This document shows positions 2,436-62,932 of a DNA stretch of 64,000 nt, piece after piece. Both the position numbers and the translations under genes were made by a program. The notes under the pieces were generated by a model, which was not told where the DNA came from, did not search any database, and worked only from the letters and a program-made list of their open reading frames with translations. Every line of letters starts with the position of its first letter. Position 1 is the first letter of the stretch. This DNA is from a virus (lineage: Duplodnaviria; Caudoviricetes): the IMG/VR virus record IMGVR_UViG_3300016486_001578; one strand, 5' to 3'.

Positions 2436-3302
2436 TTAAATCATATTGAGTAATTGTGTTTTCTTTTCAGTAAACTCATCCTCGGTTAATATACCGGAAT
2501 CATATAGCTTTGATAGGCCCTCTATTGTTGATATTATATCTTCGACATTTTTATTTGGTGTTTTAGATAATTTTTTTGTATCTACTGGCATACTACTCTC
2601 CGGTAATATTTTTATAGTAGTTTTGGAAATTCTAAAATTCTCAAAATCCATATCCATAGTTTCGAATTTCTGTGATGATTTTTGACCACCTTCGACTCTT
2701 CCTGTTTCTACTTTATCCATGGATAAAGTTTTCTTAGATCTGGTAGATTTTGATTTAGTTTTACTAAGTGGGTTTGATAAATCAACATCGGTGTTCATGA
2801 TATTAGATGAATACATCGCATTTGTTGAGGTGGTATTTACCATATTACTTATGTTAGTATTGGTCCCATTCGTTTGATTATAATAAACTCCTTGTTCCCA
2901 CCAACCATTGTGATACGTTGGATATGTTTTTAGATTTATCCAATTTGTCCAATTTTCTTTTTCTATTATTTCTTCTTTATAGAATTCAACTTCTAACAGA
3001 CCATTTTTTTCTGTGGCACTAATAGAATCTTTCTCATTATCTACTTCATAAGTATTGAAAACGAATTTTTTATTACTTTCTATAAAACAATCTAAGTAGA
3101 ATCTTTGTCCTGGTCTTAATATTAATCCTGATTTGGAAATTAGTGACCCATTTAATTTTATGTTTGCTAAAACACAAGTTTTTAGTGGGTTAAAGAGTTC
3201 TATTTCAAAATACTCTTTGTCTTTTAGGAAAACTTTTCCTGATTTGATTGATTTTCTCCCTCTATCTTTAGATGAGACAATCCATGCTTTTGGTTCTTTC
3301 AT
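2436..3302 (-). CDS. Hypothetical protein with C-terminal SHOCT-like domain
   Basis: C-terminus LSKLYDSGILTEDEFTEKKTQLL fits the SHOCT pattern. Confidence 0.7.
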   Translation of the reverse strand: MKEPKAWIVSSKDRGRKSIKSGKVFLKDKEYFEIELFNPLKTCVLANIKLNGSLISKSGLILRPGQRFYLDCFIESNKKFVFNTYEVDNEKDSISATEKNGLLEVEFYKEEIIEKENWTNWINLKTYPTYHNGWWEQGVYYNQTNGTNTNISNMVNTTSTNAMYSSNIMNTDVDLSNPLSKTKSKSTRSKKTLSMDKVETGRVEGGQKSSQKFETMDMDFENFRISKTTIKILPESSMPVDTKKLSKTPNKNVEDIISTIEGLSKLYDSGILTEDEFTEKKTQLLNMI

Positions 3303-3409
3303 TATTTATTCTTTATTTTTTTGACCCATATCTTAATTCTTTAAAAATTTCAAAGGCACACTATTGATACCCGACATGAGTTATGAACAAATTTATATAT
3401 CACTTTCTA

Positions 3410-3862
3410 TCACTCCCCTTTTAAATTCTCTCCACATTTTGGACAAAACTTAAAATTATTATTCATATAACCACATTCTGTGCAAAACTCAGATAGAGTC
3501 GTTTCTTCTTTTTGGAATAATATAACATTTTTATTCGTCTTTTCGTTACTTGATATGGTATATGACCAACCATCTGGAGTAAGCGATGAGAATATCCTTG
3601 TTCTTTTTGCTCCTTGTACATGAGCTAATAATTTTTTTATACTTTTGTATTCTGTGAAAATTCTACAAACCTCTCTTATTGTTCTTATTATAGAAATGGC
3701 CTCATTTTTATTTGCTGAACCATCAATATTGTGAAATAAAAATGCCCATATTTCGTCCTTATTATTTATCTTCGTAAATCTAACTAAATATCTAGTATTT
3801 GATTCATTCGTTCTGAAGGAAAAGGCTCCTTCTGCTTTATTTATTTCTCTAATATTATACAT
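3410..3862 (-). CDS. Hypothetical protein with C-terminal zinc ribbon
   Basis: CTECG...FCPKCG. Confidence 0.7.
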   Translation of the reverse strand: MYNIREINKAEGAFSFRTNESNTRYLVRFTKINNKDEIWAFLFHNIDGSANKNEAISIIRTIREVCRIFTEYKSIKKLLAHVQGAKRTRIFSSLTPDGWSYTISSNEKTNKNVILFQKEETTLSEFCTECGYMNNNFKFCPKCGENLKGE

Positions 3863-6341: not shown

Positions 6342-9300
6342 ATGTGGGCATATAGTAGTGATTATAATAGGTGGGAGAAAAAAACTAATAATTTAAATTT
6401 AGATGAATTTCAATACTTTAAGCAAGAAATGGACTCATTTAGATTTTATTCTAAATGTTTAAGTGGTTCTTCTTATATACCAATTAATGATACTTCGGAT
6501 ATTTATGATATACTTACCGATCAAAAGCCAAAAAATTGGTATATTGGTAATACGTCCTCGCAATATTCTAGTTCTCAGATACCAAATGAGTATGCTGAAA
6601 ATATAATAGGAACATCATCTGAGTATTATAAAAAATACCTACCAGAATATGGATTAACTTTAAAGAATTTATTTACTCCTGAGAGAATAATAAAAGATTC
6701 TATAGATAATTTCATCTATGTTGACTTAGCTACAAATGAACAATTATCTGACTTATATGATGAGGTAATAAATAGAAAAATAGATGGTGTTAGGCTATTT
6801 GAGGGTAGCAGAGTACTTATTAAGAACCAAAAATCAAATGTTGTTATATCTAGTTCGGTTGATCCAGATGATTATTTTATTTCTGAATATACGGAAATAA
6901 ATACAGTTGGAACAAACACCGAATACGAGTACTACAATGAAGATAATGGAATATACATTTACTCTGATAATATATTAGTCAGAGAGAGTGACTTGGATAT
7001 TTATGAAAATTGTGTTAGGTTTAGTGTTTGTGTTAAGATGGGAACTAATAATGCAGGTAAACAATTCCATTTATCTAGATTATTAAATGGTTATTATCCA
7101 AATACATTAGAAAACAATCCTATTTTATTTAAGGAGAAAAAAAATTGGGTAATAAGAAATAAAGTTGATTATAATAATCTATTCGATATAAATTACTATG
7201 GTACACTAAAACACGGAACTCAATCTTATGAGTTGGGTGGTATAACCTACTCAATTCCAGAAAGGACAATTTCAATTGGTGAGTTTGGTGTAATTATAAA
7301 TAACCAATCATCATATTCTAATATTATTAGAAATAAGTATAAGGTTAATCTTAGAAGTATAGGCCAAACAGATGCTTATTATTGGATAGTTGGTGATGAT
7401 GGTACACTACTAAGGGTAAGAAAACATGATTTTAATATAGAAAATATAGAAGTTGATTGTAAGTGTCCTAGAAAAAATGTAACCACAAATTTAAGATCTG
7501 TTTCTTTTTTCAATAATCTAAATGGAGTAGTTGTTGGTGATCTAAATACTATATTAATAACAAATGATGGTGGTATAAAATGGGAAAGGCACTTAATAAG
7601 CGCCTTTGACGCTTTCTATTATAATAAAGTTTATTTTAATGATATTAATAATTTCTATATTGGTGGAAACAATGGCGTTTTTATACATTTTAAAAAAGAT
7701 ATAAATAATTGGACAGCATATAAAAGAAGAATATCTAAATTTATTGATGATGAGGATGAGTTTTTGTTGGTTGATAATATAAATGATATATTAAAAACTG
7801 ATGTTGATACTTGGTCACCCTATTATCAATTTTTTACACAATCTACATCGACTAACAAAGAGTTGTTATTTTTGGTAACTGATAATAATAATATCATTTT
7901 ACATGATATAGATAACTCAATTCCATTTCATACTGATTTTATGTATTTAGAAATGGATGATATAGATTATGGTGATATAAAGACAATCGAAAAAAGGTTT
8001 GGTGAAGATAAATTCTACTTTACTGGTTATGATAAGATCAATGAGGAATCTGGTATATTTTCTTTCCAGTTGTCTAATTTCGATAGTATAGGATTTGGTA
8101 ATTCATTTTCGAATAGGATATACTCGACATTCAGTGCTTATTTTGAGTCCGATAGTTATCCAAATGATATTTTTGATTATAAAGGTGATGAGCTAATTTT
8201 ATCTGGTAATAACTCAATGTTATTATCATCGACCTATAGTGCTACATTTAGCTTTTCTAATATAGATGATGAATTAGAATCTAGGTTAAGGTCAAAATTA
8301 TTATTTTTGGATTATGATGTAGCATCTAAATTAAACTTTTTTACAGATGAAGGAGAATATAGGCTACCAAGTTCTGTTGAATTTGGATTCACACAATCTA
8401 TAAATAATTACTTTGGTTTCGCCCCGATAGTACATCCGAGTGAATCTCCTAGTTTTTTGACACAATCGGAAATAAATTGGTGGGAATATTGGAGAGATTC
8501 TGAATCCACTTTTGAGTATTATTCTTATCCTCAACAAATGACAGATGCTACAAAGGTTTTAATATCTAGTTATTTTTCAACAACAGATTCTGATATTGAT
8601 GAGATGGTAATAAATACTATTTCAAAAAATTCATCTGATATATTAAATCTAGCACCGACTATATTGGATGCTGGACATAGTAGATTTAATGGATTACTTT
8701 CCTCCCCTATATCTTCTCCCATAATTGATTATGATATGTATTTATATGATTATTTGATGGTCATAAGAACCAATGCTACGAATAACTTAGTAGCTGAGGT
8801 TGGTGATATGATTAGATTAGAAAGTGATGAAGTTATGGATAACTTTTTAGTAAATAAAAAAATAACATTGGGTGCCAATTCATACATATATCTATTCTCT
8901 GAATTTAGCGATGGAGTAATTAATTCTTTGGTGAATTCTAGTAATATTGTAGTTAAGAATCTTAATAAATTCTCTGATATGATTGAACTAGAATATAGAT
9001 TTAATTTACACCCTATATCAAATGGTTATGATCTATATGTAGATGATCAAGATTTTGTTGAAATATCTGCAAAGTTTAATAATTTAACATCTTATTATAA
9101 CCTAGGAACACAAATATATGGCAACTTAGGAACACAATCAATGGTATATAAAGATAGATTTTTGAAATTCGGATATAAACCAACTTACAATTTATTGGAT
9201 TACCTAGAAGGAATAAATGATAGTTTAATAAATGCTAAATTCTCAAAAAATAAAGAATTTTTATCTATGCCTATTTATAATAATATTCCTGTTGGGTCTA

Positions 9301-49497: not shown

Positions 49498-50610
49498 ATG
49501 AATATGATACAAGAAGAAATAACAAAAGAAGAAGAAGATTTTATCTTCGAGTCCCAAGAAATAAATAGGGGCGAAGATTACGAAGCGCTATTAGCGCTTT
49601 ATGAGGAATATCCTATTATAATTCCTGAAGAAGGAGATGTGTTGACCGCAATATACCAAGGTATATCATCAGATCAATTTATATTCTCAGTAATAGGCCT
49701 AAAAGATGATATTAGAGTGGAGACTAAATCATCAGAATCTAAATATATCTCTAATTTAGAAATAGGTGATGGGATTGATGTTTTAATAACAAACATAAAC
49801 GAAGATGTTTATTTAATAAACGGTAGTATATGTGATCTATATGAATCAAGAGCACACGAATCATTGAGATCAATGGATAAAGATGAGGCGGTGATGGCGA
49901 CTGTTAAATCTATTAATCCAGCAGGATATGAAGTTGAGGTCTTCTATAATGGTGTTGTTTTAGCTGGGTTTATGCCTAATACATTAGCCGGAATAAACAA
50001 GCTACATGATGCAGAATCTATAATAGATGAAACATTTGATGTGATGATTGAATCATTCTCACAGAGAGAAGGAACTTATATCGTTAGTAGAAAGAGATAT
50101 CTACAAACATTAATACCGGAACAAGTAGAATTATTAGAATATAATGAAGTTTATTCTGGTTATGTTACTGGTACTACAAAATTTGGAGTATTTGTAGAGT
50201 TTAGTGCAACACAAGATGTTCCTAATTGCTTAACTGGTATGGTACATAAAGCGAACCTTAACACAGATTGGAAAGACAGGATGGATGAAATCCAACCAGG
50301 ATTTGAAATAGATTTTTATATAAAGGAAGTTATTAAAAATAATAATTATAATAATTATAAAATTATATTAACACAGATCCTAAGAGAAACTCTTTGGGAC
50401 ACTATAAAAGGTGGCCAAGTTATGAGTGGTAAGATAAGAGATATTAAAAAGTTTGGAGCATTAGTTAATCTAGATGAAGAAACAGTTGGACTTGTTCACA
50501 TTTCTGAAATAGAAAAATCTGGAAAATCATTTGAACCAGGTGATGATATTGATGTAAAAGTTATATCCACTGATAGGAGCACTCGAAAGATATTCCTAGC
50601 CGTGGCTTAG
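49498..50610 (+). CDS. Ribosomal protein S1-like multi-S1-domain protein
   Basis: S1 repeats GFMP, TKFGVFVEF...GMVH, KKFGALVNL...GLVHISEI...VKVIS-x-D...KIFL. Confidence 0.85.
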   Translation: MNMIQEEITKEEEDFIFESQEINRGEDYEALLALYEEYPIIIPEEGDVLTAIYQGISSDQFIFSVIGLKDDIRVETKSSESKYISNLEIGDGIDVLITNINEDVYLINGSICDLYESRAHESLRSMDKDEAVMATVKSINPAGYEVEVFYNGVVLAGFMPNTLAGINKLHDAESIIDETFDVMIESFSQREGTYIVSRKRYLQTLIPEQVELLEYNEVYSGYVTGTTKFGVFVEFSATQDVPNCLTGMVHKANLNTDWKDRMDEIQPGFEIDFYIKEVIKNNNYNNYKIILTQILRETLWDTIKGGQVMSGKIRDIKKFGALVNLDEETVGLVHISEIEKSGKSFEPGDDIDVKVISTDRSTRKIFLAVA

Positions 50611-60118: not shown

Positions 60119-60232
60119 ATGAGAGCAATTAACAAACATAAGCATTTTAGTAAGAAGTCATTTTTCTGGTTTAGAAACCAGGGTTCGGCAACAGATGCGT
60201 ATTGCTCTAATTTAAGTAAAACAGGAATGTAA
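60119..60232 (+). CDS. Leader peptide 1 (K/H/F/W-rich), MRAINKHKHFSKKSFFWFRNQGSATDAYCSNLSKTGM
   Basis: 37-aa ORF between promoter motifs and terminator; 11 of codons 6-18 are K/H/F/W. Confidence 0.85.
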   Translation: MRAINKHKHFSKKSFFWFRNQGSATDAYCSNLSKTGM

Positions 60233-60256
60233 ATATTTAAAATAGATATACAAATT

Positions 60257-60294
60257 AAACCCGGACAAATAAAATTGTCCGGGTTTTTTATTTT
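60257..60294 (+). terminator. Attenuator terminator before tRNA array 1
   Basis: AAACCCGGACAA-ATAAAA-TTGTCCGGGTTT plus T-tract. Confidence 0.9.
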
Positions 60295-60388: not shown

Positions 60389-60507
60389 GGTTGTGTAGCT
60401 CAGTTGGTAAATTGGCTTATCTTTCTTTTTAAAACCCTTTTATCATGAAGAGAGCGGGGGTGTGAAGTACCCTGACATTTGCTCCGGTTCGATTCCGGAC
60501 ATGACCA
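60389..60507 (+). tRNA. Atypical tRNA-Phe(GAA)-like gene with 42-nt insertion in the D-loop
   Basis: Acceptor GGTTGTG/CATGACC, D-stem GCTC/GAGC, anticodon arm GGGGT-GTGAAGT-ACCCT, T-arm TCCGG-TTCGATT-CCGGA. Confidence 0.65.
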
Positions 60508-61188: not shown

Positions 61189-61261
61189 CAAAAATTATGT
61201 GTTTGAACTTACAGTTTGAGATTTACACAGTACCTAAAATCTAAGTAAACTGGAGAAATAT

Positions 61262-61340
61262 ACGGGTATCGTCTAAGCAAAGACACTTCGTACAAGCGAA
61301 GAAATAGGATGCATTTTAGGTTCAAGTCCCCTCGCCCGTG
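61262..61340 (+). other. Degenerate tRNA-like element
   Basis: ACGGGT/GCCCGT ends, GTCT/AGAC stem, CTTCG/CGAAG stem with 6-nt loop, GGTTCAAGTCC. Confidence 0.4.
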
Positions 61341-61373
61341 CTAAAAACAAAATTAACTTTTAATATATAGTAT

Positions 61374-62151: not shown

Positions 62152-62223
62152 AAAAAAATTAGGAAATAACAAAAACAAGTATTACATTTATAATATATAT
62201 AGTAACAATAAGAAAATAAAACA

Positions 62224-62301
62224 ATGAATAACATAAACAACATATCGAATAGTTCTAGTCGTAGTTCGCTAAAAATTAGTGAGGGTTGTTCGTATTTGTA
62301 A
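62224..62301 (+). CDS. Leader peptide 2 (Ser/Arg), MNNINNISNSSSRSSLKISEGCSYL
   Basis: 25-aa ORF; control stretch TCG AAT AGT TCT AGT CGT AGT TCG. Confidence 0.85.
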   Translation: MNNINNISNSSSRSSLKISEGCSYL

Positions 62302-62325
62302 TATTCGTATAAAAAAGATATTTAT

Positions 62326-62357
62326 AAAGACCCTCTAATTTATTAGAGGGTTTTTTT
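62326..62357 (+). terminator. Attenuator terminator before tRNA array 2
   Basis: AAAGACCCTCTAA-TTTA-TTAGAGGGTTTTTTT. Confidence 0.9.
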
Positions 62358-62365
62358 GTTTTTAT

Positions 62366-62442
62366 GCCTTAGTATCAGCACCGAATACGAATCGGTAGTC
62401 TTGTAATGGATGAAAATGTGGGTTCGACTCCTACCTAAGGTT
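62366..62442 (+). tRNA. D-armless tRNA-Arg(ACG)-like RNA
   Basis: Acceptor GCCTTAG/CTAAGGT, 7-nt linker in place of the D-arm, ACCGA-ATACGAA-TCGGT, 21-nt variable region, T-arm GTGGG-TTCGACT-CCTAC. Confidence 0.65.
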
Positions 62443-62449
62443 CAAGTTA

Positions 62450-62641
62450 GTTAAACGTAAGGATAACTCTAAAATATGTAACGATTGTAGGTCGATTAAT
62501 AATAGGAAAGTTAAAAGACCATCATATGAAGAATTAAAAGAAGAAATTAAAATATCAAATTATACAAAGATGGGTAAAAAATATGGAGTTAGTGATGTCT
62601 CTATAAAAAAATGGATTAAAAATTATGAAAAAATGAAATAA
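62450..62641 (+). pseudogene. Remnant of an HNH-type homing endonuclease C-terminus (CxxC plus HTH)
   Basis: CNDC...RKVKRPSYEEL...GKKYGVSDVSIKKW; no start codon. Confidence 0.6.
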
Positions 62642-62660: not shown

Positions 62661-62748
62661 GGAAATGAAAGCAGTGCCATGGAGGTGCGACTAGTCTTGA
62701 AAACTAGGTCTCGTTAAATCGGGTGGGGGTCGGTTCCTCTCATTTCCG
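62661..62748 (+). tRNA. tRNA-Ser(TGA), 8/4 type
   Basis: GGAAATGA/TCATTTCC, CTAGT-CTTGAAA-ACTAG, long variable arm. Confidence 0.8.
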
Positions 62749-62759
62749 CAAATAAATAA

Positions 62760-62843
62760 GGAAGAGTAATTAAACAGGTGTTTGACCTCGTTTTGAAAAC
62801 GAGTGGTACTTTACGGTATGGGGATCGGGACCTCACTCTTCCG
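62760..62843 (+). tRNA. tRNA-Ser(TGA), 8/4-compatible
   Basis: GGAAGAGT/ACTCTTCC, D-arm TTAAAC-AGGT-GTTTGA, CTCGT-TTTGAAA-ACGAG. Confidence 0.82.
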
Positions 62844-62848
62844 CACAT

Positions 62849-62932
62849 AGAGAGTAATCTAGTCTGGTGACTAGGGCCGCCTGCTAAGCGTGTCGCACCT
62901 TCGGGTGTGGGGTTCAATTCCTCTACTCTCTG
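62849..62932 (+). tRNA. tRNA-Ser(GCT), 8/4 type
   Basis: AGAGAGTA/TACTCTCT, D-arm CTAGTC-TGGT-GACTAG, loop CTGCTAA, TTCG-capped variable arm. Confidence 0.82.

Follow-up and report, generated by a model that had tools for sequence, protein, structure and literature searches.

The described RNAs closest to the element at positions 62366-62442 of the viral DNA analysed here (IMG/VR record IMGVR_UViG_3300016486_001578; the whole stretch of 64,000 nucleotides is referred to as the window) are canonical tRNA-Arg(ACG), mitochondrial serine tRNAs, class II tRNAs and permuted or split tRNA genes. With the canonical class I tRNA-Arg(ACG), represented by the Rfam tRNA model RF00005, by the gene at L001:4056-4128 of a related locus and by E. 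coli tRNA-Arg(ICG), the element shares the acceptor stem, the anticodon arm, the T arm and the D-loop core G18 G19 A20, as well as the operon slot that the canonical gene holds in relatives. In contrast to the canonical RNA, however, its D-stem 5' strand and D-loop follow the anticodon arm, a D hairpin is missing and the "variable region" comprises 21 nt. Mitochondrial tRNA-Ser(AGY/UCU) of mammals and Ascaris suum likewise has a short connector in place of the D hairpin, but it combines a short variable region, degenerate T loops, absence of GG and structural flexibility and serves mitochondrial ribosomes with serine, whereas the family described here is phage-borne and arginine-type, with a canonical T arm, a D-loop motif and D-stem-like pairing. 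Class II tRNAs and allo-tRNAs (Ser, Leu, Tyr, Sec-like) also carry extra nucleotides between the anticodon and T arms, yet these form a self-contained covarying variable-arm hairpin next to a retained D arm, while the extra nucleotides of the element pair with the 5' connector. In the permuted tRNA genes of Cyanidioschyzon merolae and the split tRNAs of archaea the order of parts differs from the cloverleaf as well, but there processing rebuilds a standard cloverleaf. The two acceptor strands of the element are collinear and show no sign of being reordered, so that the mature RNA itself is predicted to be internally permuted. For a Nostoc tRNA-Arg(ACG) an "intron" of 22 nt has been reported (PMC5733544); it was considered and set aside, as its stated position does not fit the family. 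The layout was not described in the literature searched (full-text searches and reviews), although absence there is no proof of novelty.

The element is not debris but a real gene, conserved within a family of arginine tRNAs that depart from the cloverleaf. Our preferred reading, to which we give a probability of roughly 75% on the strength of sequence comparison, is that it is a tRNA-Arg(ACG) gene in the layout common to a large phage-borne family, and most likely a working one. The sequence layout, its conservation, the covariation of its helices, the restriction of the anticodons to arginine with a few isoleucine and the position in an operon are direct observations. A sequence-only reading of the window had reported a tRNA-Arg(ACG)-like RNA with intact acceptor, anticodon and T arms, a connector replacing the D-arm and a 21-nt variable region, all of which we recovered at the positions it gave: the element has 77 bases, with a 7-nt connector (62373-62379) in the place of the D-arm and the variable region at 62397-62417. 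Between positions 9 and 26 no D-arm hairpin is found. At 62404-62417 the element has the motif UAA(N)GGA and then a short linker, rich in A, that ends in U ahead of the T stem. Standard tools handle this arrangement poorly. RF00005 scores the element at 24.4 bits against a gathering threshold of 29 (E 0.019 over the 1.1 kb searched), its alignment covering exactly 62366-62442 with 15 D-arm positions reduced to 4 nt and a 17-nt insertion, and ARAGORN called eight other tRNAs in the 64-kb window while missing this one.

Relatives were collected by two pattern scans of viral contigs, which returned 14 stretches and at least 120 stretches, respectively (in the second set, chance matches in coding DNA made up about half), and by one scan of the genomes of 185,579 species, which returned 16 stretches, five of them with members confirmed by covariance model (CM; L127, L128, L129, L131 and L135, the L numbers denoting collected loci); a scan of viral contigs with the exact anticodon-arm pattern gave no match. 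Filtering, which included a filter for UA, left a seed of 47 unique sequences, and the search patterns had demanded the GGAU and GAAAAU motifs. Of the two family CMs, R1 and R2, the latter was built from 46 relatives with the window sequence excluded; it recognized the element over its full length (1-77) with 82.4 bits (E 3.5e-21) and standard bases at 20/20 modelled pairs, and its runner-up match within the window reached 15 bits. Family members score 42-90 bits with the family CM, compared with at most 34 bits for ordinary tRNAs. The collected loci contain 67 CM-aligned members, and five more in cultured phages bring the total to 72.

These 72 members reside in phage contigs, in a few bacterial assemblies and in cultured Streptomyces, Microbacterium, Pseudomonas and Xanthomonas phages. 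The five from cultured phages, none of which was in the seed, score 68-83 bits and are unannotated or, in Mildred21, listed as "tRNA-OTHER". Among the carriers are Xanthomonas phage Xoo-sp13 (MN047793.1, near 49927-50003, with an ACG member), Pseudomonas phage ventosus (MG018930.1), the Streptomyces phages Gilson (NC_048742.1, 71932-72005) and Mildred21, and Microbacterium phage Pumpernickel (NC_073468.1). Nearly all 72 are unannotated and ARAGORN misses nearly all relatives; the family is widespread among phages and escapes gene finders. The CCA end is encoded in 24 of the 47 unique members, and 41 of 48 member loci contain three or more ordinary tRNAs. In several large arrays, namely L085 (26 tRNAs), L064, L036, L037 and L080, the rewired genes are the sole arginine tRNAs seen. 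The first homolog (L001:4499-4579, in the uncultured huge phage LR745206.1), located at the end of a Ser cluster, has the layout of the window element with the anticodon UCG, and its acceptor and anticodon stems differ from those of the window in a compensatory manner. Some members lie in tRNA arrays on long bacterial contigs, three in an Armatimonadota metagenome-assembled genome (MAG; L135, 1.36-Mb contig; 1860-1936, 3397-3475 and 6394-6470) and one in a Hoeflea MAG (L131, 1-Mb contig; 2929-3005), and are probably part of prophages or mobile tRNA arrays.

The sequence-only reading had proposed a search for homologs with covarying stems, and such homologs exist, 72 in all, with the three stems of the family 97-99% paired and rich in compensatory changes. 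Across the 47 unique members the paired fraction of alignment cells is 98.8% in the acceptor stem, 96.6% in the anticodon stem and 97.9% in the T stem; every acceptor pair shows changes on both sides, all five anticodon-stem pairs covary, and 338 cells are changed on both sides overall compared with 97 in shuffles. Sliding the partners by one column lowers pairing to about 47%. Beyond the three arms, the connector pairs with the variable region in a short helix, here called helix P, whose positions were absent from every search pattern; positions 4 and 5 of the connector join the two bases directly ahead of the D-loop-like motif. Its first pair (columns 12-40) is CG in 28 members, UA in 14, AU in two, GC in two and unpaired in one, and its second (columns 13-39) is GC in 23, CG in 20, AU in two, GU in one and unpaired in one, i.e., each pair forms in 46 of 47 members with four pair types, and its mutual information ranks among that of the true helices. 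Pair counts and mutual information make up the entire basis of helix P. The label "D-armless" used in the sequence-only reading is misleading in view of this short covarying D-stem-like pairing. Its second proposal, a small hairpin within the variable region, appears in the minimum free energy (MFE) fold of the single sequence (62398-62401 with 62408-62411), a fold of unremarkable energy (z = -0.93); as a family feature the hairpin was rejected, as only 44% of its cells are paired in the relatives and none is changed on both sides.

The suggestion that the variable region holds a D-loop-like sequence is supported. The core of the motif recurs in the D-loops of the ordinary tRNA-Arg genes that L001 and L077 carry, its GG is invariant in the seed and near-invariant in second-tier CM matches, and the GAAAAU stretch that follows varies in those matches, its last base tracking position 15. 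In the 67 CM-aligned members the 15-48 analogue is A-U in 63, G-C in three and G-U in one (Fisher p 8e-5), which is the pattern of a Levitt pair at the sequence level. UA at positions 8-9 is present in 67/67, a figure biased by the filtering of the seed for UA and by the CM, which expects it.

The anticodons point in the same direction. They are arginine in 68 of the 72 members, isoleucine in three and UCA in one, with two weaker Ile-type matches besides. The pattern-found set (n=47) is arginine throughout (UCU 20, UCG 14, ACG 10, CCU 2, GCG 1), and the CM matches add CCG as well as further GCG and CCU. GAU and UAU (Ile) and UCA are each one base change away from an Arg anticodon, and the family is not strictly arginine-specific. 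Three of the Ile matches (43-57 bits) are in the 67-member alignment, whereas the two weaker ones, in L121 (33.9 bits) and L006 (33.7 bits), score in the range of ordinary tRNAs and were counted on their layout. Bacterial arginyl-tRNA synthetase (ArgRS) recognizes chiefly A20 and C35, together with U/G36, and prefers A or G as discriminator while tolerating U, and bacterial tRNA-Ile identity includes A73 and U20 (PMC9976931). All anticodons of the Arg members contain C35 and nearly all Arg members carry GG-A, while all five Ile matches carry GG followed by U and have the discriminator A. Coordinated changes of this kind speak, at the level of sequence, for charging of the RNAs and for a D-loop role of the motif. 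The window element presents the arginine set in its sequence, with A after GG at 62410, C35 at 62388, G36 at 62389 and U73 at 62442, the A being relocated. An ArgRS-like protein is encoded in only one of five member genomes, so that host enzymes presumably suffice. The coordinates of the element's parts, of its immediate surroundings and of the members with other anticodons are given in Table 1.

Table 1 Parts of the element at 62366-62442, flanking features of the window and family members with Ile or UCA anticodons.
Feature	Position	Strand	Remarks
Acceptor stem, 5' strand	62366-62372	+	Pairs with 62435-62441; 7 bp, 7/7 pairs standard, G1.U72 wobble
U8 A9 and one variable base (possible 22-like position)	62373-62375	+	
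Helix P, 5' strand (D-stem 3'-strand analogue)	62376-62378	+	With 62401-62403: C-G, A-U, G.U
Lone unpaired base 5' of anticodon stem (putative position-26 analogue)	62379	+	C in 37/47 members
Anticodon arm	62380-62396	+	5-bp stem, 7-nt loop; U33, ACG at 62387-62389, A37
Four unpaired bases from anticodon stem to helix P	62397-62400	+	First is A (position-44 analogue), A in 45/47; others vary
Helix P, 3' strand (D-stem 5'-strand analogue)	62401-62403	+	
D-loop-like motif UAAUGGAU	62404-62411	+	A14/A15 analogues 62405-62406, G18 G19 62408-62409, A20 62410
GAAAAU, variable-loop analogue	62412-62417	+	U62417 is position-48 analogue
T arm	62418-62434	+	5-bp stem, 7-nt canonical TTCGA-type loop
Acceptor stem, 3' strand, and discriminator U (62442)	62435-62442	+	No encoded CCA
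Upstream control region	62166-62355	+	Promoter-like site 62166-62194, leader open reading frame 62224-62301, intrinsic terminator 62326-62355
Startless 75-codon frame	62414-62641	+	Overlaps last 29 nt of the tRNA; HNH endonuclease C-terminal remnant
GAU (Ile) members	L011:7163-7243, L121:6091-6167		
UAU (Ile) members	L079:33-112, L015:9678-9754, L006:1337-1412		
UCA member	L010:440-527		Opal-suppressor-like

The arrangement is most simply described as a normal tRNA whose segment 10-21 has been relocated to a place 3' of the anticodon arm. The chain would then run from U8 A9 through the 3' half of the D-stem, the anticodon arm, the 5' half of the D-stem and the D-loop to a 6-nt analogue of the variable loop and the T arm. 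Three new junctions would arise (9 to 22, 44 to 10 and 21 to 45), each joining residues that are adjacent in the canonical L-shape. As the residues at these junctions are neighbours in the L-shape, the usual core could be kept, with the D-stem stacked on the anticodon stem, the GG touching the T loop and the 15-48 pair in place in the predicted fold.

The window has a G+C content of about 28% and its tRNA region best matches uncultured huge-phage genomes of 635-735 kb; for these reasons it is treated here as a piece of a large, AT-rich phage genome. The element opens a Ser/Arg tRNA operon. As the sequence-only reading had noted, it is the first gene behind the strong terminator of a leader open reading frame (ORF) that contains a single Arg codon, CGT (62260-62262); the leader is Ser-rich with 25 codons, and the terminator, a 13-bp hairpin, ends 11 nt upstream of the element. 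The link it had drawn to the leader's CGT gained support from four related loci with CGY-bearing Ser/Arg leaders ahead of Ser and Arg tRNA operons; in all five loci (window, L001, L040, L127 and L077) a Ser-codon-rich leader with one to three CGY Arg codons and a terminator precede the operon. Locus L001 is syntenic, with two leader and terminator units and tRNA cargo as in the window, and here the first gene after the second leader and terminator is the ordinary tRNA-Arg(ACG). In L127 the ordinary tRNA-Arg(ACG) comes second, behind a Ser-like element, and in L040 a rewired Arg(UCG) takes the first slot. The CGY-reading tRNA is ordinary in L001, L127 and L077 and rewired in the window, in whose 64 kb ARAGORN detected no ordinary tRNA-Arg(ACG). 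It is through this substitution in the operon slot that the window itself adds to the evidence for function.

The startless frame behind the element matches PHROG 15471 (HNH endonuclease) at profile positions 115-174 of 183 (E 6.4e-8), while Pfam gave weak HTH and Gin matches only; it is a footprint of traffic by homing endonucleases and probably of gene replacement, and a truncated HNH frame adjoining the element fits replacement by recombination. The small ORF after the L001 member, tentatively read as HNH-like, had no PHROG match. Just after the rewired gene of L040, a segment (L040:5043-5009, minus strand) resembles by eye the 3' half of an ordinary tRNA, with the 3' strand of the anticodon stem, a 4-nt variable loop, the T arm and the 3' strand of the acceptor stem, and appears to be the leftover of a displaced gene.

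Upstream of tRNA operons the window has two promoter/leader/terminator units (60120-60292 and 62166-62355). Counterparts of both are present in L001 (2669-2830 and 3918-4046), and of the second in L040 (5261-5130, minus strand), L127 (2510-2615) and L077 (1486-1612). The operon cargo matches the codons of the leaders, with Lys/His/Phe/Trp for the first unit and Ser plus CGY-Arg for the second, and a segment near the end of the second leader (about 62276-62287) resembles the 3' arm of the terminator and could form an antiterminator. Judged from these sequences, the units look like leader-peptide attenuation of tRNA operons.

If the element works as a tRNA, its transcript would be made upon readthrough of the terminator behind the Ser/Arg-rich leader ORF, processed by RNase P and 3' trimming, and completed by the CCA-adding enzyme. 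Host TadA would deaminate A34, host ArgRS would charge the RNA via the A20 analogue, C35 and G36, and the charged RNA would read the rare codons CGU, CGC and CGA.

A number of points weigh against a working tRNA with a canonical core. Within helix P, the third pair (columns 14-38) forms in only 20 of 47 members, leaving two reliable positions overall, and RNAalifold applied to the family recovered the three arms but neither helix P nor the hairpin of the variable region. Seed conservation of GGAU and GAAAAU is inflated by the search patterns. The canonical core is derived from sequence logic rather than from a structure, and the fold, processing, editing, charging and decoding of the element are steps that we infer. 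The window copy does not encode its CCA. Demand for the isoacceptor is not obvious either: among the Arg codons of crudely called ORFs of the window, CGN accounts for 43 of 609 (CGT 18, CGA 19, CGC 2, CGG 4), next to AGG with 124 and AGA with 442, the latter being dominant as the sequence-only reading had it. Finally, rewired genes show no significant avoidance of the anticodons that ordinary Arg tRNAs of their locus carry, with six of 29 duplicating one where 8.1 are expected (p 0.21).

Some of these points bear on the rival explanations. The two reliable positions of helix P and the three arms seen by RNAalifold would suit a working tRNA-Arg that is truly D-armless in three dimensions, i.e., a flexible, mitochondrial-style molecule in which the pairing between connector and variable region lengthens the anticodon helix and the motif in the variable region serves ArgRS recognition only; mitochondrial D-armless tRNAs do work through flexibility (PMC7609411). 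We consider this unlikely, given the near-invariant GG, the 15-48 covariation, the identity of the motif with the tRNA-Arg D-loop of the same genomes and the canonical partners in the T loop, features that would rather fit a retained elbow. Somewhat less likely still is a tRNA mimic or decoy outside decoding, co-expressed in tRNA operons as a sponge for a nuclease or toxin directed at Arg-tRNA or as a competitor for ArgRS or TadA. The layout is indeed unlike that of every tRNA known to work on bacterial ribosomes, phage tRNAs are known to counter tRNA-targeting defences (PMC12409363), and the duplicated anticodons in six of 29 cases suit a decoy as well. A decoy would, however, sit oddly in the large arrays that have no other Arg tRNA, and the family spans the Arg anticodons ACG, GCG, UCG, CCG, UCU and CCU, switches to Ile anticodons come with matching identity changes, the CCA is often encoded and the acceptor/T domain that binds EF-Tu is fully conserved; a decoy aimed at just one enzyme could do without all of this.

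It is extremely improbable that the element is what remains of a tRNA gene after decay or recombination, a pseudogene produced by the traffic of homing endonucleases through the tRNA cluster. The truncated HNH frame overlapping its 3' end, its rejection by ARAGORN and by the RF00005 threshold and its unremarkable folding energy would be in keeping with decay, but all 20 family pairs are intact at 82.4 bits under a model that excludes the element, and the 72 homologs have compensatory changes across unrelated phages and hosts in stems too divergent for recent copies. In this respect the sequence-only reading, which favoured a functional rearranged tRNA or a decoy over debris, agrees with the homologs, the covariation, the nearly exclusive Arg anticodons and the CCA encoded in 24/47. 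We also tried two other origins. A class II, serine-derived tRNA was suggested by the similar variable-arm loop of the neighbouring tRNA-Ser(GGA) and was rejected on account of the tRNA-Arg D-loop motif, the Arg anticodons throughout the pattern-found set and the lack of a covarying hairpin in the variable region, and a chimera with an anticodon arm taken from a local ordinary tRNA-Arg(ACG) was dropped as the only trace, a 9-nt identity to the L040 remnant, is too thin.

Going beyond the preferred reading of a working tRNA-Arg(ACG), the family might represent a second solution, other than the cloverleaf, for a tRNA active in translation on bacterial ribosomes. Phages of many phyla would keep it because its altered core evades an activity that recognises ordinary Arg (and Ile) tRNAs, be it a tRNA-directed nuclease or toxin of the host or the depletion of host tRNAs by the phage itself; in the window it would have displaced the ordinary tRNA-Arg(ACG) and be gated by a Ser/Arg-sensing leader peptide. 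In this full form we regard the proposal as speculative and rather doubtful. Should the RNAs decode, the cloverleaf order of parts would not be obligatory for bacterial ribosomes, ArgRS, EF-Tu, RNase P and modification enzymes, which would be a surprise for tRNA biology, and the family would constitute a natural experiment in permutation of the tRNA core that might also provide engineered or orthogonal tRNAs with a scaffold. Inventories of phage tRNAs fall short of the true number, which affects arguments on codon usage and host range that are drawn from tRNA complements. In the window, a rewired ACG isoacceptor occupies the slot of the relatives' ordinary tRNA-Arg(ACG) under a CGY-containing Ser/Arg leader, which connects the family with a candidate mechanism by which leader peptides control tRNA operons.

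Other unusual tRNA-like genes lie nearby. Three serine tRNAs with unusual folds, a group with counterparts in L001, are located downstream of the element (62661-62747, 62761-62846 and 62848-62932); two of the serine tRNAs match the Rfam selenocysteine tRNA model with 31.6 and 48.8 bits, carry the Ser anticodons UGA and GCU and have a 9-bp acceptor stem, a 4-bp T stem and a 6-bp D stem, and the middle one (62761-62846, UGA by eye) was called by no tool. Upstream, at about 61255-61343 (plus strand), a tRNA-like stretch that likewise escaped all tools has a good T arm and acceptor-like ends with an irregular anticodon loop. At 60389-60507 (plus strand), a stretch not called by ARAGORN matches the Rfam tRNA model with 37.2 bits over 119 nt; it carries an insertion of about 45 nt between the D region and the anticodon arm and, by eye, the anticodon GAA (Phe).
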